A DNA stretch of 64,000 bases from a virus (lineage: Duplodnaviria; Caudoviricetes), in IMG/VR virus record IMGVR_UViG_3300035498_000530, positions 64,001 to 128,000 of that record, one strand, 5' to 3'. Shown one piece after another: positions 5,050 through 27,966 of the stretch; the first letter of the stretch is position 1; every line of letters starts with the position of its first letter. Under the pieces are notes generated by a model that was not told the DNA's origin, did not search any database, and was given only the letters and a program-made list of their open reading frames with translations. A program made the translations under genes and the position numbers.

Positions 5050-6722
5050 TATTCATCCTCCTCAATATTCTTTCCCACAGAAGGTGACTTTAAATATCCG
5101 ATTATACTAGATGCAAATGCTGCGCATTGGGCACCTGATAATTCTTTTGCCTTGGTTTCATAAAAATTTAAAAAAGATAAAGTATTTTTTGCATGATGCT
5201 GTACTCCATCTAAAACTTTGTTTACAAATATTAACATGTCTTCAGCATCTTCTTTAATTGATGATTTTATTACTGAATATAATCTTGATTCTATGTTTTT
5301 CTGAATATGCCTTGGTTCTTCAATTCTATTCTTATCTGGCATATAAAGAATACTTATAAAGAATTCATAGTTATCTTTAAGTCTATATTCTAAATCATAC
5401 TTGAAGAGATAGTCTGCTCTCTGTCTTAAAATAAATTTAATAGCAGAATAGTATGTGTCTTTAAAATCATCTAATAATACCATATTGATAAATCGTATAG
5501 ATTTAGATGATTTTAATTCATATATTGATTCTGTTATATCATTTATAAAAATATTTATAAAATGACTATACTTTAATTTTATTAGCTCATCATCTATATT
5601 ATAGACTGGCTTTTTGAAAAATACAGAATCAATATATCCGTTTAATATACAATTGCTAATATAATTAATTCTTTCTCTAAAGAAATCCACGTAATTATCA
5701 ATGATTTTCATAATACCATCATAGTCTTCTTTATATTTATAATCATAGATATAATATTTATTGATAAATTGTCTTTTGACACTATCCATATCAAATTCTG
5801 CTTTAGAATCTTGTGAATCTGTAGAATTATCAGATTTCTCATTATCAGATAACCAATTTTCTTTTTCTGATATTCTCTTAATCATAGATTGAATATCATT
5901 ACAGATATACTTAATCATATTATATAAAGAAATAGCATCTTTATTTTCTAAGCGTGTTCCATCTGGAACTTTTGTTCTACTATAGACATATTCAAATAAA
6001 TCTTTATCTGTTATAAATCTTTTTTCTTTTATACACTTTGAAAGAATTTCGTCTGCTGCCATTATACTACCATATATCATATCAAAAAACAATGTGTCTC
6101 CACCAAAATAAATATTACAGAAAAGCGTTGCTTTACCGCCTGCAAATCTTCTATAATATTCAGCATCTTCAGAATAGCATGAAATGAGATCATCTAATTC
6201 TTCATCTAGTTCTGTATTGCCTTCATAATCTTTAAGAAGATTTAATGAATGATCATATAATAATTCTGTTGCAATATTGATTATATCATCCATAATACTC
6301 CCTATACTAGGAATACTATTAACGCTTACAGTATCAGGAGATTTATTCGTAGATAAGTAATGTCTAATACAATTATCCTTCTTAGGATCATAGTCTTCTT
6401 CTGACTCTTCTTTACAGAAATTATGTCTTGAGCAAATATATTCATAAAGATCTCCATTATGCCTTATAATACTCTGCATTTCTTGCTCTTGCTTACAGCA
6501 ATAAAATGCTACATTAGCTATATTATGACACATAGAAAATCCTATTTCTGATGCAAATAATGGACCTCTAAATATACTCATTTCATCATTATCTGGAGCA
6601 GTAATAGTTGATACATAATCAAATATTCTATCTGCAGCTCTATCTGGTCTACCTTCATTCATTGCGTCTGTTAAAGCTTCCTCCACTTCAACTCTAAGTT
6701 GATCATAGTTATAGTTTTTCAT
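5049..6722 (-). CDS. Hypothetical protein, paralog family A (long form)
   Basis: 557-aa ORF, SD AAGGAGG, early-type promoter at 6781-6789. Confidence 0.85.
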   Translation of the reverse strand: MKNYNYDQLRVEVEEALTDAMNEGRPDRAADRIFDYVSTITAPDNDEMSIFRGPLFASEIGFSMCHNIANVAFYCCKQEQEMQSIIRHNGDLYEYICSRHNFCKEESEEDYDPKKDNCIRHYLSTNKSPDTVSVNSIPSIGSIMDDIINIATELLYDHSLNLLKDYEGNTELDEELDDLISCYSEDAEYYRRFAGGKATLFCNIYFGGDTLFFDMIYGSIMAADEILSKCIKEKRFITDKDLFEYVYSRTKVPDGTRLENKDAISLYNMIKYICNDIQSMIKRISEKENWLSDNEKSDNSTDSQDSKAEFDMDSVKRQFINKYYIYDYKYKEDYDGIMKIIDNYVDFFRERINYISNCILNGYIDSVFFKKPVYNIDDELIKLKYSHFINIFINDITESIYELKSSKSIRFINMVLLDDFKDTYYSAIKFILRQRADYLFKYDLEYRLKDNYEFFISILYMPDKNRIEEPRHIQKNIESRLYSVIKSSIKEDAEDMLIFVNKVLDGVQHHAKNTLSFLNFYETKAKELSGAQCAAFASSIIGYLKSPSVGKNIEEDE

Positions 6723-6821
6723 TTTCGTTGTCCTCCTTATTGATCTTATAGTGTATTATATAACTTCTGTTATACAGATCTATAATATATAGTCAAAGCA
6801 TATTTAAATTATAAAAAATAA

Positions 6822-6888: not shown

Positions 6889-8322
6889 TCATTCTTTAAC
6901 ATGATTTTTAATATCAATATCTTTATCTGTAGTACTTGATGTTGGATTATTACTTAAGCCAGCCATACTATTATACAAATCCTGTTCAGATGGATCTACT
7001 ACAGGTTTAGGATCACACTTAGGTCCAGTATATGCAGTATTCTGATTAAAACTATATATGGGTGCTCCATAGTTAAGCTGCTGACCATAGTCAAATGGCA
7101 ACTGCTGATAAGGTTTAAATCCTGGATAATACTGCTGCGGCTGACCATACTGCATATGTGGGGTAAACGGATTCCAAGATTCATTCTTACTAGGATCATT
7201 ACTATAGTATTTTCTCTTATCTTCAAGTATAACCCTACAGCATTTATGCACCTCATTCATTATTCTTTCATCAAATAAATACAATAAAAAGTTCTTTTGA
7301 TTACCTGATAATGACTCGTTATCATATATACTATGTCTTATTTCATCGATTTCAAGTACTACACAAGAAAATGCTTCTACCTTGTTATTATGCTGTATAT
7401 TGATACTTGCATACAAATTAACAGAAATATTAAATAATTTATCGAGATATTCACGTAACCATTCAAAGCTACTTTCATTTTTACAATATTCTGAAAATTT
7501 GTTTTCTATATCATCAAATTCTTTTCTGATATAACCAGGTTTATTTAATGATAATACATAACCAATACAGTCATATGCAATAGAATACCTAGATCCGAGC
7601 AAATTAAAAAGAACAAAATCAAATGATATTTTATTATGCAGTTCTTCTATGAATTCATCATACATTTTCAAATTGAAGTACTCTTTAATAATATCAGGAA
7701 TGCATTTTACTAAATATTCAGTAAATAAGATTTGAGTAGACTCTTTATAATCTGCTAAATCTTTCTCTATATTAATAGCAGTATCCATCCTATAATTTAT
7801 ATGATCCATAAAGTATTCAATCCAGTCAGCGCTATAATTGCTGCATGAAAATGGAAAACGACTTTTTAATGCTATGATTCTGTCATTTAATGAACTTTCT
7901 GAAGAGTTTATACTTGTGCATCCATGATGCATAAAATCTATAGCTAAAAGTTTTTCATAATTACGATCATACATAGAATCATATAAACTCATACCAATCA
8001 ATATATCATGATCGTTGAATCTTAATGAAGAATAAGAATAGATTACTGCAGGATCCAATGATACCATATCTTTTATTTTAGATACAATATAATTAAAAAG
8101 ATCATTAACTTTAGCTATTTTCTTATCCTCCAATGTAATTCTACAATATGATTTTCCATTAGAATCTGGTGTATAGAGCAACAAAGCTACATCTTTTGTA
8201 AATTTCTTATAAATGTCTTGATCATTAACAATATTATCAACCGAATATACTACTTGCTTTTGATCTTGATAAATAAAATCACCCATCTCCATTACTTCGT
8301 TTAAAAGTTCTTTTCTAATCAT
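6889..8322 (-). CDS. Hypothetical early protein, paralog family B
   Basis: KFTKDVALLLY, IPDIIKEY and KNFLLY motifs shared with 8503..9642 and 13375..14553; Q/Y/P-rich C-terminus. Confidence 0.85.
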   Translation of the reverse strand: MIRKELLNEVMEMGDFIYQDQKQVVYSVDNIVNDQDIYKKFTKDVALLLYTPDSNGKSYCRITLEDKKIAKVNDLFNYIVSKIKDMVSLDPAVIYSYSSLRFNDHDILIGMSLYDSMYDRNYEKLLAIDFMHHGCTSINSSESSLNDRIIALKSRFPFSCSNYSADWIEYFMDHINYRMDTAINIEKDLADYKESTQILFTEYLVKCIPDIIKEYFNLKMYDEFIEELHNKISFDFVLFNLLGSRYSIAYDCIGYVLSLNKPGYIRKEFDDIENKFSEYCKNESSFEWLREYLDKLFNISVNLYASINIQHNNKVEAFSCVVLEIDEIRHSIYDNESLSGNQKNFLLYLFDERIMNEVHKCCRVILEDKRKYYSNDPSKNESWNPFTPHMQYGQPQQYYPGFKPYQQLPFDYGQQLNYGAPIYSFNQNTAYTGPKCDPKPVVDPSEQDLYNSMAGLSNNPTSSTTDKDIDIKNHVKE

Positions 8323-8409
8323 AGTAGTTTCCTTTCTTGTATCTTAGTAGATACCTATGTATTATTATTTAGCTCAACATAATTGCTATATTATTACTAT
8401 TATAATATG
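8323..8409 (-). promoter_or_regulatory. Conserved early promoter + structured 5' leader, copy 1
   Basis: CATATTATA; UAGC-AAUUAUGUUGA-GCUA; AAUAAUACAUAG; GUAUCU-ACUA-AGAUAC; SD AAGAAAGGA. Confidence 0.8.
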
Positions 8410-8502: not shown

Positions 8503-9642
8503 TTATTTTCTTCCATCATATGATGGAAAATTCTTATCTGGTGCTACAGTATTTAAATTATCCATCCAAGAAGTATTTCTATTATTAAATAAAGCCGCAC
8601 CAGCATCATATGGATTATTAGAATTAGACTCTAATGATGAAACTCTATATTCATCTTTACTTAATGAGAATATAGAATCTTTTATAGATTCGATAAGCTT
8701 TTGAGAAATATATAATAAAAATTCTTTTTCATTCTTAGACATTCTTGATCTTTTAATAGAATCTTCTATATTTTCAATTTCAGAAGAAGCATTTACATAA
8801 TTACGTTTCTTAAATATAGTAAATCGCAAATTATCTTTAATTGAGTCATATGGCATATTAAGTTCTTTACAAGAAGATATAGACTCAAGTAATTTTATTA
8901 TAAATTCATATGATTTTTGTTTTGGCTGGTATGATTCATCAAAGTATTTTGAATATTCATCATCAAATAACTTAAAATACTCATAAGTTTGTTTATCATT
9001 ATTACGACTCTCTAAATTAATCATTAGATCATATATTCTTGAATAATGGGCTGGATTTTGTCTATATAAAAATAAGGTGAATGGTATTTCATCTGTTTTA
9101 TCATCCAGATTATAATTAGCAACATAAGTTGCAAGATAGTATCTAAATATATCTGGTATACTATCATATATAAACTTTGCCAATAGTATATAATTAGGAG
9201 TTTTGCAATCTCCTAAAAATTGTTTAATATCAAACTTTCCCTTAAAAGCATAGCACCATGAACAATTATATATTCTTTCACCATTTGCGCCAGTATAATT
9301 AGTATTATATAAAATACTGTATAATATATCTACTTTATTTACATTAACACCCTGATTATATAAAGATTCAGCATTTAAAAGTTCATAATGCGGTATTTGA
9401 AGATATTTAGTATAAAAATCATCTGATGATCTTATATATTTACTGATTGGATCAATAATCCTATAAAAATCATCATTTATGGTTTTATAATTTGAATTAT
9501 CAAACAAATCTATAGTTGTACCTTCATATAAAGCAATAGTTAAACTACTCATAAATTCATGATATGATCTTTGATTAGAAATGATATCATATAACTTATA
9601 ATTATAATTTTGAGTATTGTTGCAATTTTCTTTCTTGTCCAT
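8503..9642 (-). CDS. Hypothetical early protein, paralog family B
   Basis: IPDIFRYY and EIENIEDSI...KEFLLY align with 6889..8322. Confidence 0.85.
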   Translation of the reverse strand: MDKKENCNNTQNYNYKLYDIISNQRSYHEFMSSLTIALYEGTTIDLFDNSNYKTINDDFYRIIDPISKYIRSSDDFYTKYLQIPHYELLNAESLYNQGVNVNKVDILYSILYNTNYTGANGERIYNCSWCYAFKGKFDIKQFLGDCKTPNYILLAKFIYDSIPDIFRYYLATYVANYNLDDKTDEIPFTLFLYRQNPAHYSRIYDLMINLESRNNDKQTYEYFKLFDDEYSKYFDESYQPKQKSYEFIIKLLESISSCKELNMPYDSIKDNLRFTIFKKRNYVNASSEIENIEDSIKRSRMSKNEKEFLLYISQKLIESIKDSIFSLSKDEYRVSSLESNSNNPYDAGAALFNNRNTSWMDNLNTVAPDKNFPSYDGRK

Positions 9643-9735
9643 AATTCTTATCCTTTCTTGTATCTTTTAAGATACTTATGTACATATTTATTATTAGCTT
9701 AGTACAATCGCTATATTTTATACTAATATAATATG
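9643..9735 (-). promoter_or_regulatory. Conserved early promoter + structured 5' leader, copy 2 (divergent loop)
   Basis: CATATTATA; UAGC-GAUUGUACUAA-GCUA; AUGUACAUAA; GUAUCU-UAAA-AGAUAC; AAGAAAGGA. Confidence 0.75.
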
Positions 9736-10839: not shown

Positions 10840-11751
10840 TTAATCATCCTTTCTATTATATCCAGTTGTAAAATAATTGTAACGTTGAAAATGATAAATG
10901 CCATCTTCTTTGAATTTAACGCTTCTGTATAAATATATACATTTATACATATACTCGACTCTTTCATATCTAGAATCGCATTTACCATAAAAATTATCCA
11001 TAATCCTTTTGGTATCCTTTATTGCTTCTCTATATGAAACATATATGGTTGGAGACCAAGCGCTAACAATAGGATCATCATCTTCACTAGTATTTGAATA
11101 CCAATGGCTTTCTGTAATAAAATATGATGATGATTCTGGAACTCTTATAGTACTTATATAGCTATCATTATAATAACCATCAATATTATTACGTTTATCT
11201 GTAAGATACTCTATTAATTTTTCTTTAGATTCTGACATTACTCTGCATGCATCTCTAAAATAAATATAAAAAGTTTTAATTTTATTATCATCTACATTAT
11301 CATCGTAATCCAGGAGTTCAATATTACTATCTTCATAATAGTCTCCAATTTCTTCAGAATGAACTTTAGATATTATAATAACAGTTTTATATGCTTCCTT
11401 TCCTTCCTTAAAATGATTATTATACAATTCATTAGATTTGACTTTTGCATAATCATAATCTGTATATACATTATCATAATAGTTCAAAGCATCACAATTA
11501 TCAGAACATATTGTATTCCAATAAACTGCCTCTGTATATCCTGACTGATAATAAGTTTCAGCTTCAGGAAGATATATTGTTTCTACAATAGGATTATCCA
11601 CACACTGCAGAAGATTTGATACTTGATCTTCTGATTTGCATATAAATCTCACTCGCCTACCAGAAACAACATTAATTCCCTTTTCATATATTGCATAAAG
11701 CATCTCTACGCAATTATTCTTTATTGGATTGGTTTTTCTTTCTTCTTCCAT
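10840..11751 (-). CDS. Hypothetical protein, family C (two domains)
   Basis: KSEDQV...LPEAETYYQSGY and MSESKEKLIEYL...VPESSSYF. Confidence 0.85.
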   Translation of the reverse strand: MEEERKTNPIKNNCVEMLYAIYEKGINVVSGRRVRFICKSEDQVSNLLQCVDNPIVETIYLPEAETYYQSGYTEAVYWNTICSDNCDALNYYDNVYTDYDYAKVKSNELYNNHFKEGKEAYKTVIIISKVHSEEIGDYYEDSNIELLDYDDNVDDNKIKTFYIYFRDACRVMSESKEKLIEYLTDKRNNIDGYYNDSYISTIRVPESSSYFITESHWYSNTSEDDDPIVSAWSPTIYVSYREAIKDTKRIMDNFYGKCDSRYERVEYMYKCIYLYRSVKFKEDGIYHFQRYNYFTTGYNRKDD

Positions 11752-11835
11752 AATTTGTCCTTTCTTGTACTTATTGTACTTATGTATTATTTAATGACTC
11801 AACATAATTGTCATATTATACAAATCTATAATATA
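11752..11835 (-). promoter_or_regulatory. Conserved early promoter + structured 5' leader, copy 3
   Basis: TATATTATA; AUGAC-AAUUAUGUUGA-GUCAU; AAUAAUACAUAA; GUAC-AAUAA-GUAC; AAGAAAGGA. Confidence 0.8.
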
Positions 11836-13218: not shown

Positions 13219-13306
13219 AATCTTGTCCTTTCTTGTACTTATTGTACTTATGTATTATTATTTAGCTCAACATAATTGCCATATTATTATACAGATCTAT
13301 AATATA
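13219..13306 (-). promoter_or_regulatory. Conserved early promoter + structured 5' leader, copy 4
   Basis: TATATTATA; UGGC-AAUUAUGUUGA-GCUA (G-U pair); AAUAAUACAUAA; GUAC-AAUAA-GUAC; AAGAAAGGA. Confidence 0.8.
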
Positions 13307-14553: not shown

Positions 14554-14643
14554 AATCTTATCCTTTCTTATATCTTCTTAAGATACCTATGTATTATTTA
14601 ATGACTCAACATAATTGTCATATTATTATACTACTATAATATA
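14554..14643 (-). promoter_or_regulatory. Conserved early promoter + structured 5' leader, copy 5
   Basis: TATATTATA; AUGAC-AAUUAUGUUGA-GUCAU; AAUAAUACAUAG; GUAUCUU-AAG-AAGAUAU; AAGAAAGGA. Confidence 0.8.
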
Positions 14644-15253: not shown

Positions 15254-15340
15254 AACTTTTTCCTTTCTTGTACTCATTTGTACCTATGTATTATTATTTA
15301 GCTCAACATAATTGCTATATTATTATACTACTATAATATG
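15254..15340 (-). promoter_or_regulatory. Conserved early promoter + structured 5' leader, copy 6
   Basis: CATATTATA; UAGC-AAUUAUGUUGA-GCUA; AAUAAUACAUAG; GUAC-AAAUGA-GUAC; AAGAAAGGA. Confidence 0.8.
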
Positions 15341-16200: not shown

Positions 16201-17341
16201 CTCCTAATGATCTTATGTATGGAGTTAATACTTTATCTAAAGACAAAGCATACTTTCTTATCTCATCCTGAGCATGTGGATCTGTTCTTAACTCTATAAA
16301 CTTCTTATAATTACCCAAAGTCATAGTCATATACAATTCATAACAGTTTGTATTATTAAGAAGTACTGCTCTAGCATCTTCTTTTTTAATACCCTGTGAT
16401 ACTAAATTTGAATAATTATTAGTAGCATTGTAAAAGAGAAGATTACATAACTGACTGAATTCGAATTCTCCTTCAAGACCTTCAACACTATATAACTGTC
16501 CTTTATAAGCATCCGGATTAGGAACAGTAAATGAAGCATGAGAAGAATCTACATATCTCTGACTCTGCTGAGTAATACCATTTCTATGTCTTACTAATTG
16601 ATGAGTTGCTGTTCTAGAAGCATTAATGAATCTTACAGTTACAGTACTAGTATTAAGTATATCAAGTGGAAGATTTCTATATCTATTATTAGATATCTCA
16701 GAAAATGTAGTATCTCCTGATATAATCTCTACATACTTATCATCTACACCAAATAACTTCTTTCCTTCTTCTTTCAATTCTTCATTAAGCTTCTCTATAT
16801 CTTCTGGACTATATGTATTCAAGCTATCTGACTCTGAAAATACATCAAATTCACTAATCGGGAATGTTTCTGCATAATCAACAGATCCAAATAAATCTTT
16901 TCCCCATGATGTATTTTCTATTATAGCTATAAGCATTTCTTCTATAATTAAGCATATTGAATCATCATCATATAACTTTGAATCTGCATATACCATATTA
17001 AATAAATGGATATATCCTCTAATAGATCCACTTATAATAATAGATGCTAACAAATCTTCATTCTCATAAGAATAATCCTTCAACTGGAATACGTTAAGAT
17101 ATTTACAATATGTAAGTAATGTAATTATATCTTCCAAACACAAAGCATAAGAGATATCAACTCTCATAGATATATTAGAGTGCTCTAATACGCTAGTATG
17201 ACCACTCTTTATTCTTCTCTTAATATAATCAAGTTTACCTTCTCTATCCTCAGGTAATTTAGTATTATAGCATGATGAGCATGCCTTACTACAAATATCA
17301 ACAGCATCATTATATCCTAAAATCTCTATATCTACACACAT
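16181..17341 (-). CDS. thyX: FAD-dependent thymidylate synthase with a large central insertion
   Basis: GHTSVLEH; SRTATHQLVRHRNGITQQSQRY; EDARAVL; LRTDPHAQDEIR. Confidence 0.9.
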   Translation of the reverse strand: MCVDIEILGYNDAVDICSKACSSCYNTKLPEDREGKLDYIKRRIKSGHTSVLEHSNISMRVDISYALCLEDIITLLTYCKYLNVFQLKDYSYENEDLLASIIISGSIRGYIHLFNMVYADSKLYDDDSICLIIEEMLIAIIENTSWGKDLFGSVDYAETFPISEFDVFSESDSLNTYSPEDIEKLNEELKEEGKKLFGVDDKYVEIISGDTTFSEISNNRYRNLPLDILNTSTVTVRFINASRTATHQLVRHRNGITQQSQRYVDSSHASFTVPNPDAYKGQLYSVEGLEGEFEFSQLCNLLFYNATNNYSNLVSQGIKKEDARAVLLNNTNCYELYMTMTLGNYKKFIELRTDPHAQDEIRKYALSLDKVLTPYIRSLGGDIYDA

Positions 17342-17342
17342 A

Positions 17343-18089
17343 TTATTTATCCTCCCTTGATTCGTCTATTATACGTTTTATAATATCCATTACATATGAA
17401 TTGAAATAATCAGTAACTTCTCTATTTTCATCAAAACATGAAAGACTATCTACAAGCAATAGCATACTACGACCTGGAATCTTAGCATAGTCTTTTGAGT
17501 ATTCATGTATCATATAAAACTTTTCACTATAGTGATAGTCATATACTTTAGAAAGATAGTCAGTATTACTCTCTATCTTATCTAATTTATCTGTTCTAGC
17601 TTTCATTAATTCTAAAGCTTTATCATAACTTTGTCTAAGAAGAACTACAAGATTTGGTAATGGTATACCAAATTCATTGTGTTCCATATTAGTTATGATA
17701 TTATAATCTTCTATATCATTAGCTTGATATATTATATTTGATAAAGTCCATCTATCTGTAACTATGATAGCATTCGGATCTTCAAATATTTCTTTATTTT
17801 TCATAACAGTATCGAATCTATTCATACAATAAAAGTATGCTGGGATCTTGCCTGTAAATTCAGATGGATCTCCATATACTCCATTTACATAATTCCTTAC
17901 AAATATAGATTCTTCTGCTCCATATGTTATACTATTAAAGAGATATACCTTTGCCTCAGGATATATCTTTTTCAATAAACCTACAACAATAACTGCTATT
18001 GTTGATTTAAAACTGTAATCTGGACCTTCAAAGTCTATTATAGTAGCTTTACAATCTACCATAGGACTTGTAGATCTAGTATTTTCCAT
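17343..18089 (-). CDS. tmk: Thymidylate (dNMP) kinase
   Basis: P-loop EGPDYSFKST, TDRWTLSNIIYQ, PNLVVLL; adjacent to thyX. Confidence 0.8.
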   Translation of the reverse strand: MENTRSTSPMVDCKATIIDFEGPDYSFKSTIAVIVVGLLKKIYPEAKVYLFNSITYGAEESIFVRNYVNGVYGDPSEFTGKIPAYFYCMNRFDTVMKNKEIFEDPNAIIVTDRWTLSNIIYQANDIEDYNIITNMEHNEFGIPLPNLVVLLRQSYDKALELMKARTDKLDKIESNTDYLSKVYDYHYSEKFYMIHEYSKDYAKIPGRSMLLLVDSLSCFDENREVTDYFNSYVMDIIKRIIDESREDK

Positions 18090-18146
18090 ATAAATCGACC
18101 TCCATATTTTATATTTATTTTAAAGTTCTTCCAGTATTATATTATT

Positions 18147-18283
18147 AAACAAAGGAGCGCCCAGTAGACCGATCCTACTGGGCATAATTTGTAACAATAC
18201 ATACAAGAAAGGTTTAATGGAAATCTTATATTCCAACTTATGAAACTTAAGGGACATTTATGGACAATATTTTATTGACCCTC
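18147..18283 (-). ncRNA. Candidate trans-acting sRNA antisense to the conserved early leader
   Basis: Promoter AACA-TATAAG-TG (18294-18283); terminator stem 18159-18183; contains UUCCAU-UAAA-CCUUUCUU-G-UAUGUAUUGUU. Confidence 0.65.
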
Positions 18284-18312
18284 ACTTATATGTTATTAGT
18301 TTATAATATTTT

Positions 18313-18591
18313 ACAAAGTGTATCCCGTATGGGGTCATAACTTCCATACGGGATAGGAGAAATTGTATGCATGAACCATGCCATACCTGATACGCATTAA
18401 CCAATGGAATGGAAAATGTGTTTTTGTTGTAAGGTTTAATTTTATCGCAATCTCAGGAACAGAGTAGAATATGATATAGTATTGTGTATTTTTATATTGA
18501 TTTGAGGATTGTTATAAAACATGTATAAAAAGTAACAATAAAATTTTGTAAAATCTTTATACTATATCAATCTTCTGTTATATTAAACCTC
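18313..18591 (-). ncRNA. Candidate rod-shaped structured RNA (~280 nt)
   Basis: Promoter AACA-TATATT-TG (+1 at 18591); nested stems 18432-40/18582-90, 18472-81/18560-69, 18508-14/18533-39; terminator 18321-18355. Confidence 0.65.
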
Positions 18592-18621
18592 AAATATATG
18601 TTATTAGTGTATAATTTTTTA

Positions 18622-18838
18622 CAAAAGAAATCCCGTATGGCTCACAGGTACCATACGGGATATATCTAAGGAAAATAAGCAGCAAAATGGCAAGTCAAGT
18701 CGCTTTCCAAAGGGTGCACCTTTATATATTTACAAGGAATTTTTATTGAATAGAAATGTATTAGATTTGTAAAATTAAGTAAATGCTACAATACTACATC
18801 CTTACCGGAAGCAAGTCGGCTATTTTATACTTATCTTC
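18622..18838 (-). ncRNA. Candidate small RNA (~215 nt)
   Basis: Promoter AACA-TTTATT-TG (+1 at 18838); terminator 18630-18661 with the same TCCCGTATGG stem as 18321-18355; no ORF. Confidence 0.55.
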
Positions 18839-18863
18839 AAATAAATGTTATTCTTGTAATAAA

Positions 18864-21800
18864 TTATTGTAACTTCTTTTCATGAAGCATTGGTTCGTAT
18901 TTAATACCCATTATATCTTTTACAGACCTTGCCAATTCTACAAGAACTTTATTTATACCACCAGATACTTCAATAGAACATACCATTCTACTACTTACTG
19001 AAAGTGTAGATAAGAATAAGTCTATTGGTTCTTCTGGTCTGAATGAACTATATGGTTCTTTTCCTTCTGGGAATATATCTTTACAAACAGCTTTAAGAGC
19101 TGACTGAGTAACAAGCTTATCACCTACAGAGAAGTCATCTTGGTACTTAATGTAAAATTCAATCTTAACACCATCTGAAGTATCCTTTAATTTACCAGTT
19201 GGAGCAAGTTTTTCATCTGAACCAAAGTTTGGAGTTACAGCATAATCATTAACAGATCCTTTAGCTGCTTTCTTTAATTTCTTAACTCCAGATTCATAAG
19301 AATTACATATCTTCTTCAATGAAGGAGATAATTCTTCTGTATCTACAGTTCTATATACTTTAATATCTTGTACAATACCGGTATTCTTAGACTTTATAGG
19401 AATTCTACCGATATCTGATACTATTTCTTCATCATCAGAAAGTTGTTTAAGAAGAGCATTCATATCATCTTCATCAAATGTATTCTGGAATAATATGAGT
19501 GTTTCGCCTTCCTGAATATTCTGTCCTTTCTTTACCATAGATAATACATTTGTCGTCTTAGGTAAAGTTACTTCTTTCTTTACTACTACATCTGAAGACA
19601 ATGCTTTAGATAACCATGGTGATACAATACCAGAGTCTTCATAACCTTCATCTGTAGTTATAATAGCTACTTTAGCAAGAGTACCTATCTTATATCCTAT
19701 ACTATTAGGATTTCCTATTTCATTGGAATATGATGATTTATCATATGCTAATATCTGATTTGGTTTTACTTTAGATCCTTTCTTTAAGTCAGAATCTAAC
19801 TTAAGAGTTACATAGAAACCACCATCAGAGTTCTTTTCAACTCTTTCTCTAAGATCTATAAACTCTGTTGTATTATTATTATATTTCACTTTAAGATATT
19901 CTGGAGTTGCTTCTATTACTTCTCCAGCACCTTTAGCCTTATGAGCAAATATATCTGTAGTCAAATATGGTAATGCTTCGTCTGCACCATTGGTAATCAA
20001 TGCAGGAGAAGATTTTCTAACTCTCATACCATGTTTTGCTGTCTGTACAAATGTCATAGCAGATCTAAATGGATCATCATGCGTAGTACCAAATGGAGTA
20101 AGTGCTTCTGTCATACACATAGATTTAACACTACCCATATCTTCTTTAGATCCAGATTTTAAATATCCTCTACTATTACCAACACCCATATCTATAGTAG
20201 CCTGTCTAGTAATACCTACATTGCCAGCAAAACCAGTAGACATAGCTAATACATTTGTCATTGAATCGTCAAACGTACGTTTATCAAGACCATAGCTTCT
20301 TTCTGAGTTCATACCAGATAATCCCTTAAAGGTTACTGCATTAGAAGTCTCTATTTCAAGAAGTGGTGTAAGAATAGATGCATCTGCCATCGTAGGATCA
20401 AGCATTACAAGATCTATTACAGCAGACTGTTTCATAGTCATAGGAGCTTTTTTAGTTCTCTTTAATTGATTTCTATAAGCACCATATGATTGTGCTAAAG
20501 CTTTATATACATAACCAGCAACAATTTCATTCTTTCTAAATCTATTACCAGATATATCTACATGCTTATTATATTTATTATCAGTAAGTAATCCATTAGC
20601 ATAAGCCAATGCTGTTACATAATCTGACGGTAAATCAAAGTCTTTACATACAGATACCGTTATAGGATCCATCATCAAATCATAGAAGTTATCAAGACCA
20701 TCTGCTTTAATTCTTCCACCAAAGTTATCTAACTGTTCTACCCATGTAGATTTCTTATTAAGATCTGCTATACTCATTTCATTAGTATCACATATTCTAA
20801 GACCATTCATAAGAAGATCTGCACTTGCTGTTGATTCATAATATAATAAACCATCTTTAAATTTGATTTTATCATACATACTAGTTTCAAAGTCAGGATT
20901 CTTCTTTTCAAAAAGTCTATAATTTATATTAGCTTTATTAAGAGCTGATACCAATCCTTCAGCATGAGCCATAACTACTATAGTTGGTATCTTTGAATCA
21001 AGAATACTACAAACTGAATAAGCACAGTTGCTTGGTGCTGAAGTATCATCATAATCTCTTTGGAATTCTTCGCTAGATTGACATAATAAGTTAACTAAAT
21101 ATGTTGAGAATCTATCTCCAGATTCTTGACCAAAATATAATAACTTACTATTCTCTTTAGTGTAAACAACTGGAATACCATATTTTAAATCATACTTATA
21201 ATTCTTTCTGATCTCATCTTGGTTAAGATATATAATAAAATCTTTAGTTTCAATTTTACTAAATGCTCTTCCTATATCTACATAATCCATTGGAAGATCG
21301 TATTTAATAGATATCTTTTCTGTATTACCTTCGGTAGCATCAATATCTTTATATCTATTCTTTGTAAGAAGCTTAATTACTTTATTAGCAGCTACATTAG
21401 ATTTACCAACAGAATTATTTTGTATCTGCAAGAAAATCTTATTATAGTTTGATACAATTTGGCATACATCTGGGTCTGTTTTTATTATTGGTAATAATAA
21501 TAATTGACCCTGGATTGATTTTAGGTTGCCTCTGAGCCTCATAAACTGATTGTCTACGAACAGTGGAACGTCAAATTTGAGCTTGAAGCGCTGTCCAAGT
21601 GCATCTTCACAGTCAAGTGTCCAAGTCTCTATTAAATCCTCAGATGTGGATGTATTTTGTACATCCATAGATCTAACCACTACAGGTATAGTTTTATCTT
21701 TAAAGCTATTTATAATCTTTACAATATCTTCATTTATATCATAAGTCTCATTAAATTTAGCATAACTAAGATGTTTCCATTCTTCATTAATACTATCCAC

Positions 21801-23363
21801 AGGAACAGAAGTTTCTTTAATCTCTTTAGGTTTATCTTCTTCAAGATAATCTTTTACTGTTTTATTATGGACTTTAATATTATCAAAAGATTTACCTACT
21901 TCAGATAATCTCTTACTTCGAGCAGCATTTATCTTAATAGTATTTTCTTCATCTTCTGATACTGTATCCATAATTTTAGATATATATTCATTATTAGATA
22001 ATTTATCTACAGCATCTTCTACAGAATTACTAGAATTAGCCACAGCTTTAATATTATCCAATAATTCTTCCTTAAGTTCATCAGATATTTCTTTCTTAGC
22101 TTTAGTTTCATTCTTATTAATATTTGTAGTTTTTTCTGGTCTTGCTTTCTTTACACTTGTTTGCTTTTTATTATCTGGAGACATAGAAAGTACTGATATT
22201 TCTTTTGGCTTAATTGTTCCAGATTTACCAGTAAGTCCTTTATACTTAATTGGTCTTTCATTATTTTCAAGACTATCAGTAATAGTTGCAATAATAACTT
22301 TTGGAGAATCTGTATCTGGGTCTCCTAAATCATCTGTATTTGCATCTTTTGCTATTACTCTTTTTATAAGATTAATGAACTTTATAGATTTAGTTTTATC
22401 AAAGTCTTTAAAATCCATCTTAAAGTAATTATTTTCTCCTACGAAGATTATATTAAATCCTTTAAGGGTTTCTTGGACATGTTCTGGATATCTATAAGCC
22501 ATTCTTATTATAACTGATACTGGATTAATAGTTTTCTTATAATCCCACATATTACCATTCTTAATATTCCAATCCAATATAGGAATAAATATAGTTTTAT
22601 GTGTATATCCATATTGATCATATCTGCCATCATTAAGAAGTCTTATCATAAAATCATAATAAAGCTGTACAGCTTTGTCAGCTTTCCAGAAATTATTCTT
22701 AAAGAATGCTTCAGTATAATATGATAAATCAGCAAATAAGTTAAGTCCTTTATATAATTTAAGATTACTAAAAGTCTTCATTATAAATGGACATTCAGCT
22801 TTAACCTCTTTGTATATATCAAATACATTCTTATTAGTTTTAAGTCTTTCATTATATAATAACTTTCTTAATTGTGTATCATTCTTACCGTCTTCGGTTA
22901 AATATGCATCTCTAAATATAGTAATAGCATTTCTTCCTCTGAGATATTCATCTGTCATTTCACAATCTTTAGATATAAATGTAGGTCTATAATCTATATC
23001 TTCATTTACAGATTCTACATTATTTATTATATCTGAATTATATAATAAATCTTCAACAGATTCTTCTAATTCTACCGATTCAGAATCTGGATATAATATA
23101 TTATATCTATTATCTACTGGAGCAGATTCCTGTAGATAATTCTTACTGTTTATATAATAAGTAACATCTTTATCAAGATAGTAAGCCTGATAAGATTTTG
23201 CTCTATTTATAAACATTGGATTTTTCATAAGATTAATACTAGATTTAAAATTTGGAGTCAATAAGTAAATCATAGCACCATGTTTCTTATCATTCTCGTT
23301 TATTGGTAATAAGCATTTCTTCTTAAGTAATTTATTTGGAATTACTTCATCTAAAAATAGCAT
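18864..23363 (-). CDS. Multisubunit RNA polymerase beta subunit (split, N-terminal/main part; probably the virion RNAP)
   Basis: GNVGITRQ, TPFGTTHDDPFRSAMTFVQ, GYEDSGIVS, VGDKL, PIDLFLSTLSVSSRM; ends before the beta C-terminus; late-type promoter AACT-ATAAAA-TA upstream. Confidence 0.9.
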   Translation of the reverse strand: MLFLDEVIPNKLLKKKCLLPINENDKKHGAMIYLLTPNFKSSINLMKNPMFINRAKSYQAYYLDKDVTYYINSKNYLQESAPVDNRYNILYPDSESVELEESVEDLLYNSDIINNVESVNEDIDYRPTFISKDCEMTDEYLRGRNAITIFRDAYLTEDGKNDTQLRKLLYNERLKTNKNVFDIYKEVKAECPFIMKTFSNLKLYKGLNLFADLSYYTEAFFKNNFWKADKAVQLYYDFMIRLLNDGRYDQYGYTHKTIFIPILDWNIKNGNMWDYKKTINPVSVIIRMAYRYPEHVQETLKGFNIIFVGENNYFKMDFKDFDKTKSIKFINLIKRVIAKDANTDDLGDPDTDSPKVIIATITDSLENNERPIKYKGLTGKSGTIKPKEISVLSMSPDNKKQTSVKKARPEKTTNINKNETKAKKEISDELKEELLDNIKAVANSSNSVEDAVDKLSNNEYISKIMDTVSEDEENTIKINAARSKRLSEVGKSFDNIKVHNKTVKDYLEEDKPKEIKETSVPVDSINEEWKHLSYAKFNETYDINEDIVKIINSFKDKTIPVVVRSMDVQNTSTSEDLIETWTLDCEDALGQRFKLKFDVPLFVDNQFMRLRGNLKSIQGQLLLLPIIKTDPDVCQIVSNYNKIFLQIQNNSVGKSNVAANKVIKLLTKNRYKDIDATEGNTEKISIKYDLPMDYVDIGRAFSKIETKDFIIYLNQDEIRKNYKYDLKYGIPVVYTKENSKLLYFGQESGDRFSTYLVNLLCQSSEEFQRDYDDTSAPSNCAYSVCSILDSKIPTIVVMAHAEGLVSALNKANINYRLFEKKNPDFETSMYDKIKFKDGLLYYESTASADLLMNGLRICDTNEMSIADLNKKSTWVEQLDNFGGRIKADGLDNFYDLMMDPITVSVCKDFDLPSDYVTALAYANGLLTDNKYNKHVDISGNRFRKNEIVAGYVYKALAQSYGAYRNQLKRTKKAPMTMKQSAVIDLVMLDPTMADASILTPLLEIETSNAVTFKGLSGMNSERSYGLDKRTFDDSMTNVLAMSTGFAGNVGITRQATIDMGVGNSRGYLKSGSKEDMGSVKSMCMTEALTPFGTTHDDPFRSAMTFVQTAKHGMRVRKSSPALITNGADEALPYLTTDIFAHKAKGAGEVIEATPEYLKVKYNNNTTEFIDLRERVEKNSDGGFYVTLKLDSDLKKGSKVKPNQILAYDKSSYSNEIGNPNSIGYKIGTLAKVAIITTDEGYEDSGIVSPWLSKALSSDVVVKKEVTLPKTTNVLSMVKKGQNIQEGETLILFQNTFDEDDMNALLKQLSDDEEIVSDIGRIPIKSKNTGIVQDIKVYRTVDTEELSPSLKKICNSYESGVKKLKKAAKGSVNDYAVTPNFGSDEKLAPTGKLKDTSDGVKIEFYIKYQDDFSVGDKLVTQSALKAVCKDIFPEGKEPYSSFRPEEPIDLFLSTLSVSSRMVCSIEVSGGINKVLVELARSVKDIMGIKYEPMLHEKKLQ

Positions 23364-23407
23364 ATACTTACCTCCTTTAATTTATCTTATTTTATAGTTC
23401 AATTTGC

Positions 23408-23774
23408 AAAAAAGGATGAGATAGGCATTTCTGCCTATCTCATAGAGGTGTTCATTTAGGTTAAATAATATATATCATATCATAGTCAGTGTCTGGAACA
23501 TTGTGTGCGATTGTCTATATTATTTTAATTTTTCGGAGGTTAACTTTTGTAATTGAAAGCAATTCGTGAAATTTTTAGTTATTGCACCGAAAGCGTTGTT
23601 ATATTTTGGCATTTATTGTTTGTTTTTATTTAACCTAAATGTGAAAAATGTCTATAGATTATATTTATCTCAATTATATATCTATCTTTTGTGCATTATT
23701 TATAAATACTACATAATTGTGTACGCAGGTTTTAAAAGGAAACTTTGTAGTATCTGATCCTATATAATCTATTT
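23408..23774 (-). ncRNA. Candidate structured RNA (~370 nt)
   Basis: Promoter AACA-TCTAAT-TA (+1 at 23774); stems 23654-64/23762-72 (11 bp) and 23453-68/23626-41 (16 bp); terminator 23416-23443. Confidence 0.65.
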
Positions 23775-27138: not shown

Positions 27139-27966
27139 ATGGACAATACATTGAAAACATTTTATGCAGAAATAGGTACAGACGATTATATATATTCTGT
27201 ATCTCAATCAAAAGAGAAAGTATTAGCAGAAGCATTAAAAGAAAAGGGTCATTTTAAAGGAAGAGTTGCAAGGATTATAAGTATGCAACTTCCAGAAAGA
27301 GATATATATTATCAACCTATGTTAAATGTAACTCTCAATGATGGTGAACTTTTATATCAAATTTGTGAAAATGAAATTATAGATTCATGGGAAGATGCAG
27401 TAAAAAGATCTCATGAATTATATATTAAATATAATTCTAAAATTGATAAAGATTATACATTAGAAGAAGCAGTTTCTTATATGGAAGAATTAGAACCTGG
27501 TAGTGGGCTTTATATGGTTAATTTTGATGATCCTGAAAAGGTAATTAGAATAATAAGTTCATCTGAAAGAGGATGTGATATGAAATTAGGTAAGTTTTTA
27601 ACTGTAAAATTAAATGGAAAAACAATAGAGCCAATTACTTTATCTAATTTAAAGAAACGCATTGAGTCTATTAATAAAGAATCTAGAGATGATATTTCTA
27701 TAGGAATATCATATACTGTAGACCTTTTGCCAGAGGCAAAGTATAATGCCGATCAATTAAGAAAAATATTCTATGGTATTGAAAACGGTGTCGATATATC
27801 TAAATATTATGATCCAGAATTTGATGCTGATCAAATGGCTCAAATATATTTAGGCTTACAACATGGTATAGACTTATCGGTTTTAGGGCATGACTGTGAT
27901 TATACTAAAATGGAAAATATCAGGCTTCAGTTAGAAAAATTGTTAGAAAAGAAATCAGAAGAATAA
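27139..27966 (+). CDS. Family C domain fused to QMxQIxxGL repeats
   Basis: SQSKEKVL...LPERDIYYQP; C-terminal YNADQLRKIFYGIENGVDISKYYDPEFDADQMAQIYLGL. Confidence 0.85.
   Translation: MDNTLKTFYAEIGTDDYIYSVSQSKEKVLAEALKEKGHFKGRVARIISMQLPERDIYYQPMLNVTLNDGELLYQICENEIIDSWEDAVKRSHELYIKYNSKIDKDYTLEEAVSYMEELEPGSGLYMVNFDDPEKVIRIISSSERGCDMKLGKFLTVKLNGKTIEPITLSNLKKRIESINKESRDDISIGISYTVDLLPEAKYNADQLRKIFYGIENGVDISKYYDPEFDADQMAQIYLGLQHGIDLSVLGHDCDYTKMENIRLQLEKLLEKKSEE

Follow-up and report, generated by a model that had tools for sequence, protein, structure and literature searches.

A candidate late non-coding RNA upstream of tmk in an AR9-like jumbo phage, with complementarity to the leaders of six early genes

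The antisense RNA c4 of phages P1 and P7 blocks translation by pairing, through two short blocks, over the ribosome-binding site of icd-ant, and the lambda OOP and P22 sar RNAs, like the late cis-antisense RNAs opposed to early genes in PAK_P3 and phiKZ, pair with phage mRNAs and so reduce the expression of the genes concerned. In T4, the repressor RegA and the endonuclease RegB bring about a post-transcriptional shut-off of early mRNAs at their ribosome-binding regions. The RoxS and RNAIII RNAs of Firmicutes pair a C-rich seed with G-rich Shine-Dalgarno (SD) sequences and carry an independent terminator hairpin. The present work is about an element that may find its place among these systems, a candidate late small RNA (sRNA) of about 136 nt, named here unit 3 and located on the minus strand (18283->18148) of the window, by which we mean the whole 64-kb stretch of DNA that was analysed. 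The sequence of this window runs along the reverse strand of the 167-kb IMG/VR record IMGVR_UViG_3300035498_000530 (30% G+C; estimated completeness 68%), from a jumbo phage that is related to Bacillus phage AR9 and belongs to an uncultured AR9-like lineage. Unit 3 is complementary to the 5' leaders of six early genes of the same phage.

Early-gene shut-off is poorly understood in jumbo phages that have two RNA polymerases of their own. Both promoter classes of AR9 were mapped experimentally, the late one as AACA-(6N)-TA/G, of the non-virion RNA polymerase (nvRNAP) type and with transcription beginning at its last base, the early one as AAATATATATTAT-(6N)-G+1; the late promoters of that phage also drive antisense RNAs, which appear late (PMC5312081). 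Phages 201phi2-1 and phiKZ make sRNAs derived from intergenic regions and from 5' untranslated regions (5'UTRs), with no target or function known (PMC11512511), and SviR, an sRNA of the satellite PLE, is reported to regulate transcripts of PLE itself as well as of phage ICP1 (bioRxiv 10.1101/2022.04.08.487710). Work on AR9 and phiKZ has provided promoters and many unexplained small and antisense RNAs, none with a defined set of target mRNAs, and in the literature on jumbo phages we found no described sRNA with a defined multi-gene target set.

The initial annotation, made from the sequence without database searches, had given the unit a promoter and a terminator of its own, and sequences that fit both are in place. 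The late, nvRNAP-type promoter AACATATAAGTG (18294-18283(-)) fits AACA-(6N)-T(A/G), with the G at 18283 as predicted start, and its extended box, ATAACATAT-N3-TGAGG, is repeated at 18604-18588. A simple terminator scan picked out the hairpin GCCCAGUAG-gaucggu-CUACUGGGC at 18184-18158(-), followed by the tail CUCCUUUGUU down to 18148. The fold of the RNA has a z-score of -3.2. Between an internal stem-loop and this terminator stands the antisense tract UUCCAU-UAAA-CCUUUCUU-G-UAUGUAUUGUU (18223->18194(-)), which reads as it had been described, its successive blocks being directed against AUGGAA, against the SD sequence and against AAUAAUACAUA, a box of the early leaders. In the ensemble, most of nt 61-77 and 83-90 is predicted to be free of pairing (unpaired probability 0.6-1.0 over nt 61-77), and the CCUUU stretch reaches 1.0 both here and in the homologous RNA of L114, one of the three short contigs (L114-L116) from which the only close relative is known.

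Downstream of the hairpin the thymidylate kinase gene, tmk (17343-18089(-)), lies on the same strand as unit 3 and is followed by thyX. It has its own late promoter between the hairpin and its start codon, AACTTTAAAATA at 18127-18116(-), 26 nt before the ATG at 18089, and this promoter is kept in L114 as AACTTCTAAGTA. Because tmk owns a conserved late promoter downstream of the hairpin, unit 3 appears to be independent and would not be needed as a tmk leader, although some read-through from it into tmk may occur. We hold with good confidence that a separate late non-coding RNA unit lies on the minus strand.

The wording 'ORF-free' of the initial annotation has to be narrowed: no open reading frame (ORF) led by an SD sequence is present, but an ATG ORF of 45 codons without an SD (18257-18120(-)) runs through the unit, crosses the hairpin and ends 40 nt beyond it. 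A reading in which the unit encodes a small hydrophobic minus-strand protein, of 45 codons here and 37 in L114, can draw on the fact that each of the two phages has an ATG ORF which traverses the conserved tract uninterrupted, with a common frame at CCU-UU... and AGG-AU.... Neither ORF has an SD, though genes of this genome carry strong ones; the frame passes the terminator; the indels that separate the two DNAs are not multiples of three; and the likeness of the two peptides is not significant (score 23 against 17.6 +/- 3.8, p ~0.1). We consider such a protein very improbable.

The promoter assignments of the initial annotation are based on a real, lineage-wide grammar, because motifs of the AR9 type are enriched before genes and the early motif is kept in relatives. 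AAC(A/T)-N6-TA is found 10-60 nt before 33 ORF starts in the genome, against 0-2 for control motifs; N[AG][TC]ATATTAT precedes many genes, those with the six leaders included; and 26 jumbo-phage relatives in IMG/VR, recovered by a scan with the alignment of RNA polymerase (RNAP) and 47-59% identical in the C-terminus of RNAP beta, keep TATATATTAT-N6-GAAATAA. The form with a G start, AACA-N6-TG, behaves in its own way: the whole record (G000) holds nine intergenic sites (window coordinates 18283, 18568, 18591, 18838, 23441, 24780/24782, -30692 and -95163), none of them located 10-60 nt before an ORF. This TG variant is supported by the repeat at 18602-18591 and by its conservation in L114, and such promoters, judging by where they occur, may be reserved for ORF-less or non-coding units.

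The proposed targets are six minus-strand genes, with starts at 8322, 9642, 11751, 13218, 14553 and 15253, each provided with an early promoter and a leader of 70-80 nt. The leaders follow one order: hairpin 1, a covarying stem with the loop AAUUAUGUUGA; the invariant box AAUAAUACAUA; hairpin 2, which varies in sequence and in length; the invariant (C/U)AAGAAAGG; then 7-8 nt and the AUG. Aligned, they bear out the earlier description of invariant blocks around hairpin 2, of AUGGAA starts at 11751, 13218 and 14553, and of the copy at 9642 as the deviant one. Leader 1 (8323..8395(-)) shows the complete set, promoter ACATATTAT-N6-A, both hairpins, AAUAAUACAUA and AAGAAAGG; leader 2 (9643..9721(-)) has the deviant upstream box; leaders 3 (11752..11821(-)), 4 (13219..13292(-)) and 5 (14554..14629(-)) are those with AUGGAA; leader 6 occupies 15254..15326(-). 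Family and homologue searches with the proteins of the six genes gave no family and no homologue beyond the strain, and some of these proteins are paralogues of one another. In leader 2 the hairpin-1 loop UUGUAC and the downstream box GUACAU jointly differ from the UUAUGU/ACAUAA of the other five, a covariation that would suit a pseudoknot between loop and box within the leader. The gene starting at 6722 (leader 6723-6800(-)) has the same terminator-promoter module, but the leader behind it is a different one, shorter and with the SD AAGGAGG, so that this gene would offer a built-in negative control for the regulon proposed here.

The antisense tract of unit 3 is complementary to AUGGAA, to YAAGAAAGG/AAGAAAGG and, with one G-U, to AAUAAUACAUA, and the three helices that had been proposed, of 11 bp (one G-U), 8 bp and 6 bp, are correct. 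The pairing falls precisely on the columns that do not vary among the leaders, and the part that is skipped is the variable hairpin 2. When the whole RNA is cofolded with each leader, the energy change amounts to -13.7 to -21.3 kcal/mol. The three-way junction that the initial annotation had foreseen, with hairpin 2 left intact, is the cofolding optimum for four of the six leaders, and the leader of 14553 adds an AUGGAA helix to it; but the leaders of 11751 and 13218 take another course, with a 12-bp contiguous helix that invades hairpin 2, 6 bp more and the AUGGAA helix. A contiguous pairing of 11-12 bp between CCUUUCUUGUAU and (A/G)UA(C/U)AAGAAAGG is available in all six. A second tract of the RNA, UAUUGUCCAUAA (18257-18272(-), nt 15-26), is a perfect 12-nt complement of the start region at 27139(+), where another gene begins, as well as a 10-nt complement of the UUAUGGACAA start of leader gene 9642.

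How far this complementarity exceeds chance was assessed with ensemble dimer energies, full-length duplexes being rejected as a measure for their unrealistic length. The mean binding to the six leaders is -18.8 kcal/mol, as compared with -11.1 +/- 1.8 kcal/mol for dinucleotide shuffles of the RNA body, none of which, in 221, did as well (z -4.1). With the anti-SD block CCUUUCUU held fixed, the shuffles give -11.7 +/- 2.2 kcal/mol (z -3.2), and since they reach the observed mean only once in 191, the flanks of this block matter. The pairing thus stands above shuffled controls. Among 128 start regions (mean -11.2, standard deviation 4.1 kcal/mol), leaders 4, 6, 3, 5, 2 and 1 bind with -22.0, -20.8, -20.5, -17.3, -16.8 and -15.2 kcal/mol, that is, at ranks 1, 2, 3, 10, 15 and 27; the ranks of leaders against those of other start regions give a Mann-Whitney p of 4e-6, to be read with the proviso that the leaders are paralogous and hence not independent. 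A genome-wide duplex scan over 22,322 windows places leaders 3 and 4 second and third among the windows other than the self-complement. The leader match was not detected by blastn-short of the gap upstream of tmk against the genome, because the pairing tracts are split.

The sequence features of unit 3, its conservation in one relative, the accessibility of its seed and its complementarity beyond chance are matters of observation in silico; we infer from them the existence of the RNA, its late synthesis and an in vivo binding to the leaders by which they are repressed. A coherent mechanism can be proposed along these lines. The phage non-virion multisubunit RNAP would start from the AACA-N6-TG promoter late in infection and produce a non-coding RNA of about 136 nt, ending at the conserved hairpin. 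Its unstructured tract would then pair in trans with the 5' leaders of the six early genes, which are of the virion-polymerase class and lie 3-10 kb away, and would cover the AAUAAUACAUA box together with the SD sequence AAGAAAGG, and for three of the genes the start AUGGAA as well. The RNA would either bypass hairpin 2 through a three-way junction or invade it through the 12-bp contiguous helix. Once late transcription begins, the leader mRNAs would lose access to the ribosome or become open to decay. That unit 3 is an antisense silencer of the six early leaders appears to us plausible and the best single explanation of the locus, to be held with some reserve.

Conservation bears on whether the unit is alive, and on which strand. 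The L114-type relative has a tmk 48% identical to that of our phage and an RNAP beta C-terminus 85% identical, and before tmk it has a single homologous unit, L114:1282-1418, to which unit 3 can be aligned over its whole length. The ATAACATAT-N3-TGAGG box is kept exactly. The 5' stem is kept by compensation, as GAGGG/CCCUU in unit 3 and GAGGA/UCCUC in L114; the internal stem-loop is also present, as is UUGUCC, the core of the tract UAUUGUCCAUAA. The single-stranded tract of L114, ACCUUUGUGUAUUUGUAU (ACCUUU-GUGUAU-UUGUAU), matches the accessible CCUUU...GUAU of unit 3, and its hairpin, UGCCCAUAGGA-uuaauu-UCCUAUGGGCA followed by CUUUGUCUUUUU, shows compensatory stem changes with respect to that of unit 3, CUUUGU being kept. 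A MAFFT alignment of the two sRNAs was mis-registered in the middle. The persistence of unit 3 next to a tmk that has drifted to 48% identity argues for constraint.

The opposite strand has to be considered here, as it is collinear with the early module: on the plus strand a terminator-like hairpin belonging to the CCCTAGTAG family is followed in turn by ATAATTT, the box, the SD and ATGGAA, the promoter core and both leader hairpins being absent. The RNA gene probably arose, on this layout, from an inverted copy of a leader, and with such an origin it could be an antisense regulator by exaptation or else a relic. In the second case there would be no functional minus-strand RNA, only a decayed, inverted early terminator-promoter-leader module, and the complementarity would be homology seen on the other strand. 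The plus-strand succession of TTATATTAT, hairpin, AACAATACATA-C-AAGAAAGG-TTTA-ATGGAA and an 8-codon ORF, collinear with a leader deprived of hairpins 1 and 2, is what one would expect of a relic; the hairpin scores as a terminator on both strands (the region 17900-19000 has four such sites, against 0.3 expected); and all units of this kind show a hairpin, an SD, an ATG and a tiny ORF on the opposite strand. Set against this, the candidate early promoter of the plus strand, ATTATATTAT, is off the N[AG][TC]ATATTAT pattern and is not kept in L114, TTATATTAT at 18137 reading ATT-ATATTAT, which breaks the pattern of the promoter-like sites found before genes, whereas the AACA-N6-TG box of the minus strand is kept exactly. 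The tiny plus-strand ORFs differ in length and in sequence (8 codons here, 24 in L114), the plus strand is free of genes for 5.4 kb, with no encoded feature opposite unit 3, and a whole unit that remains alignable at a tmk identity of 48% is unexpected for neutral AT-rich DNA. The placement of the unit on the minus strand, as first annotated, is favoured by these promoter comparisons, and a mere relic looks unlikely.

Unit 3 does not stand by itself, as the gap between tmk and the RNAP beta gene holds three tandem ORF-less units, with starts at 18838, 18591 and 18283 (-). Unit 1 (18622..18838(-)) has its promoter AACATTTATTTG at 18849-18838 and its hairpin at 18661-18630, and unit 2 (18315..18591(-)) its promoter AACATATATTTG at 18602-18591 and its hairpin at 18354-18322; the two have in common the promoter box ACTAATAACATAT and a AUCCCGUAUGG...CCAUACGGGAU hairpin. 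The three units and that of L114 each end in the same way, with an anti-AUG, a spacer, an anti-SD and a hairpin. A further ORF-less late unit is found directly after the RNAP beta gene of L146 (IMGVR_UViG_3300029305_001599; L146:11306-11480), a relative with 59% RNAP beta identity that lacks two-hairpin leaders: it comprises, in this order, AACATTAAAATA, about 150 nt, UUUUUUCCUUUC and the hairpin CUCCCGUAUGA...UCAUACGGGAG, which belongs to the family seen in units 1 and 2. Searching the 167-kb record for start regions that match units 1 and 2 gave none, and for the anti-start tract of L146 the 230-kb genome of that relative offers a single match, of 20/23, judged not significant. CUUUGU stands 2-5 nt past the stem of every hairpin of these non-coding RNAs (18148-18157, 18315-18321 and 18622-18629(-); L114:1410-1420), with no classical U-run, and may be a signal for termination or processing by the phage polymerase. 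The recurring modules could represent a family of RNAs directed against start regions; they could equally serve as anti-SD elements in a generic way that has nothing to do with the six leaders. The fuller version of the proposal, in which a late sRNA made by the nvRNAP silences six dispersed early genes, competes with the leader pseudoknot and is one of a wider set of anti-start RNAs, is tentative, and we regard it as rather doubtful.

Several observations weigh against a dedicated leader regulon and must be set beside those that favour it. The expectation that the leaders would stand above generic SD matches is sustained for the three that occupy ranks 1, 2 and 3 of 128, but not for those at ranks 10, 15 and 27, which do not stand out from ordinary start regions; among non-leaders the strongest binding is -19.7 and -19.3 kcal/mol, so that the margin is 1-2 kcal/mol. 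The duplex scan returned unrelated windows of similar energy (-28.6, -27.0 and -26.9), and when the plus strand was aligned locally to the leaders with gaps allowed, the score did not reach significance (z 1.4). The CCUUUCU of unit 3 is identical to the 3' tail of Firmicute 16S rRNA, and any SD of the AGAAAGG type would be bound for that reason. Units 1 and 2 give chance 12-nt perfect matches to unrelated start regions. The RNA of L114 ranks the six leaders of our phage only 5, 7, 15, 35, 42 and 59. The U-tract behind the hairpin is weak and lies 5 nt off the stem. Finally, because AACA-N6-TG never precedes an ORF here, we infer its promoter activity from the analogy with AR9 and from conservation. 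The specificity for the leaders is real but modest.

These points lend themselves to another account, in which a real late non-coding RNA exists without having the six leaders as its specific regulon: it would be a generic anti-SD or 16S mimic, a protein sponge, or a terminated transcript modulating tmk-thyX, and the extra match to the leaders would be a relic of the inverted leader copy. Generic start regions do bind nearly as strongly as leaders. An anti-SD placed 5' of a hairpin of the CCCGUAUG or GCCCA type recurs in units 1 and 2 and in L146, which has the module yet lacks two-hairpin leaders, and units 1 and 2 yielded no specific targets. The hairpin of unit 3 resembles the CCCTAGTAG...CTACTAGGG terminators that stand ahead of early promoters, and many sRNAs of intergenic or 5'UTR origin in 201phi2-1 and phiKZ are of unknown function (PMC11512511). 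This account has to face the fact that, with the anti-SD fixed, the flanks add about 7 kcal/mol to the mean binding of the leaders (one shuffle in 191), that the paired blocks are the invariant columns of the leaders, and that the tract upstream of the anti-SD is kept in L114; as for a role on tmk-thyX, tmk owns its promoter. We regard it as somewhat less probable than antisense silencing of the six leaders, which we keep as the preferred reading.

The genomic setting is that of a unidirectional region, the minus strand holding all genes across window positions 1-23363. The ORF of 1499 aa at 18864-23363(-) is an RNAP beta subunit (PHROG 3148 + 14872; E 7e-134), a PHROG match by which the phage encodes one or more subunits of a multisubunit RNAP; Pfam and PDB sequence searches with it gave no match. 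The gap between this gene and tmk extends over 774 bp without credible genes, unit 3 being its tmk-proximal part. A late promoter of the form AACT-N6-TA lies 24-26 nt ahead of the ATG in both flanking genes, tmk and RNAP beta (23388-23399(-)); the latter has in addition an early-type TATATATTAT at 23465-23474. Elsewhere in the window a single ORF of 7033 codons (29898-50999(+)) lies behind the late promoter AACATATTAGTA. In another part of the record a tRNA-like sequence (GGUUCACUAGCUCAGUCGGUAGAGCA...) begins about 3 nt past the predicted start of the late promoter AACAATATATTA, at the record position equivalent to window -58628(-). A scan of the whole window against Rfam 15 gave no match at the gathering score, and a scan of the window for tRNA and tmRNA found none.

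A JGI contig of 151 kb carries an identical strain, and there is another contig of 223 kb; contigs L118-L122 are strain variants of the phage, with a gap identical to that of the window. A blastn search of 17300-19300 against GenBank phages gave no match, nor did searches of viral contigs with single proteins (tmk or the RNAP C-terminus) or with the exact leader pattern and the exact 5' pattern of the sRNA. A looser leader pattern returned single chance matches only in these contigs and was set aside as uninformative. The metagenome scan with the RNAP alignment yielded one distant locus, L117, with 35% identity and no synteny, and searches with homologues of the early proteins and with ThyX and the 151-aa protein of the L114 type recovered only strain variants or an unrelated contig, L123. 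The 26 IMG/VR relatives (47-59% RNAP identity) do not provide a test of the regulon because they lack the two-hairpin leader and the tmk synteny. If RNA and targets have evolved together, early leaders of the L114 type are expected to read AUACAAAUACA ... CAAAGG, the complement of the ACCUUUGUGUAUUUGUAU tract.

Were antisense silencing of the six leaders to be true, it would offer a clear case of a virus-encoded, trans-acting sRNA that governs the switch from early to late expression, with a simple code that can be tested, two invariant leader blocks and one seed, and it would give a reason for the unusually long conserved leader of the six genes. If the link to the leaders fails, a conserved late non-coding unit beside the RNAP beta gene of an uncultured AR9-like lineage will still have been documented. 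The promoter-terminator cassettes may also serve as compact parts for phage engineering.

It is worth returning to the systems from which we started. Our phage uses the same late, AACA-(6N)-T(A/G), and early, TATATATTAT-(6N)-G, promoters as AR9, and both are jumbo phages with genes for a multisubunit RNAP; the antisense RNAs of AR9, as listed by gene, overlap the genes they oppose, whereas unit 3 is predicted to be a separate terminated unit, with six predicted targets 3-10 kb away (PMC5312081). The sRNAs of 201phi2-1 and phiKZ are, like unit 3, short terminated units of jumbo phages, some of them kept at the same place in the genome, much as unit 3 keeps its place before tmk, but they belong to a different lineage with a different promoter grammar, and unit 3 has a proposed specific target family (PMC11512511). 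SviR resembles the proposed role of unit 3 in acting in trans on several viral mRNAs, and differs from it in being encoded by a satellite against its helper phage rather than in timing the phage's own programme (bioRxiv 10.1101/2022.04.08.487710).

Unit 3 is not a cis-antisense RNA, its proposed targets lying 3-10 kb off and on the same strand as the RNA gene. The OOP, sar, PAK_P3 and phiKZ RNAs are transcribed opposite their targets and are fully complementary to them, whereas the pairing of unit 3 would be trans-encoded, partial and directed at several targets. With c4 of P1 and P7 it would have in common a short phage RNA and a two-block pairing with a remote ribosome-binding region; c4, however, is processed from the same operon transcript as its one target and serves temperate immunity, not early-to-late timing, and it has no sequence relation to unit 3. 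RoxS and RNAIII also present an accessible pyrimidine-rich or C-containing seed and have their own terminator, but these are host-encoded RNAs, unrelated in sequence to unit 3, which is phage-encoded. RegA and RegB of T4 lead to the same outcome as the one proposed here, with proteins as effectors, where unit 3 would use an RNA. The proposed regulon would extend the known repertoire of antisense and sRNA control in phages.

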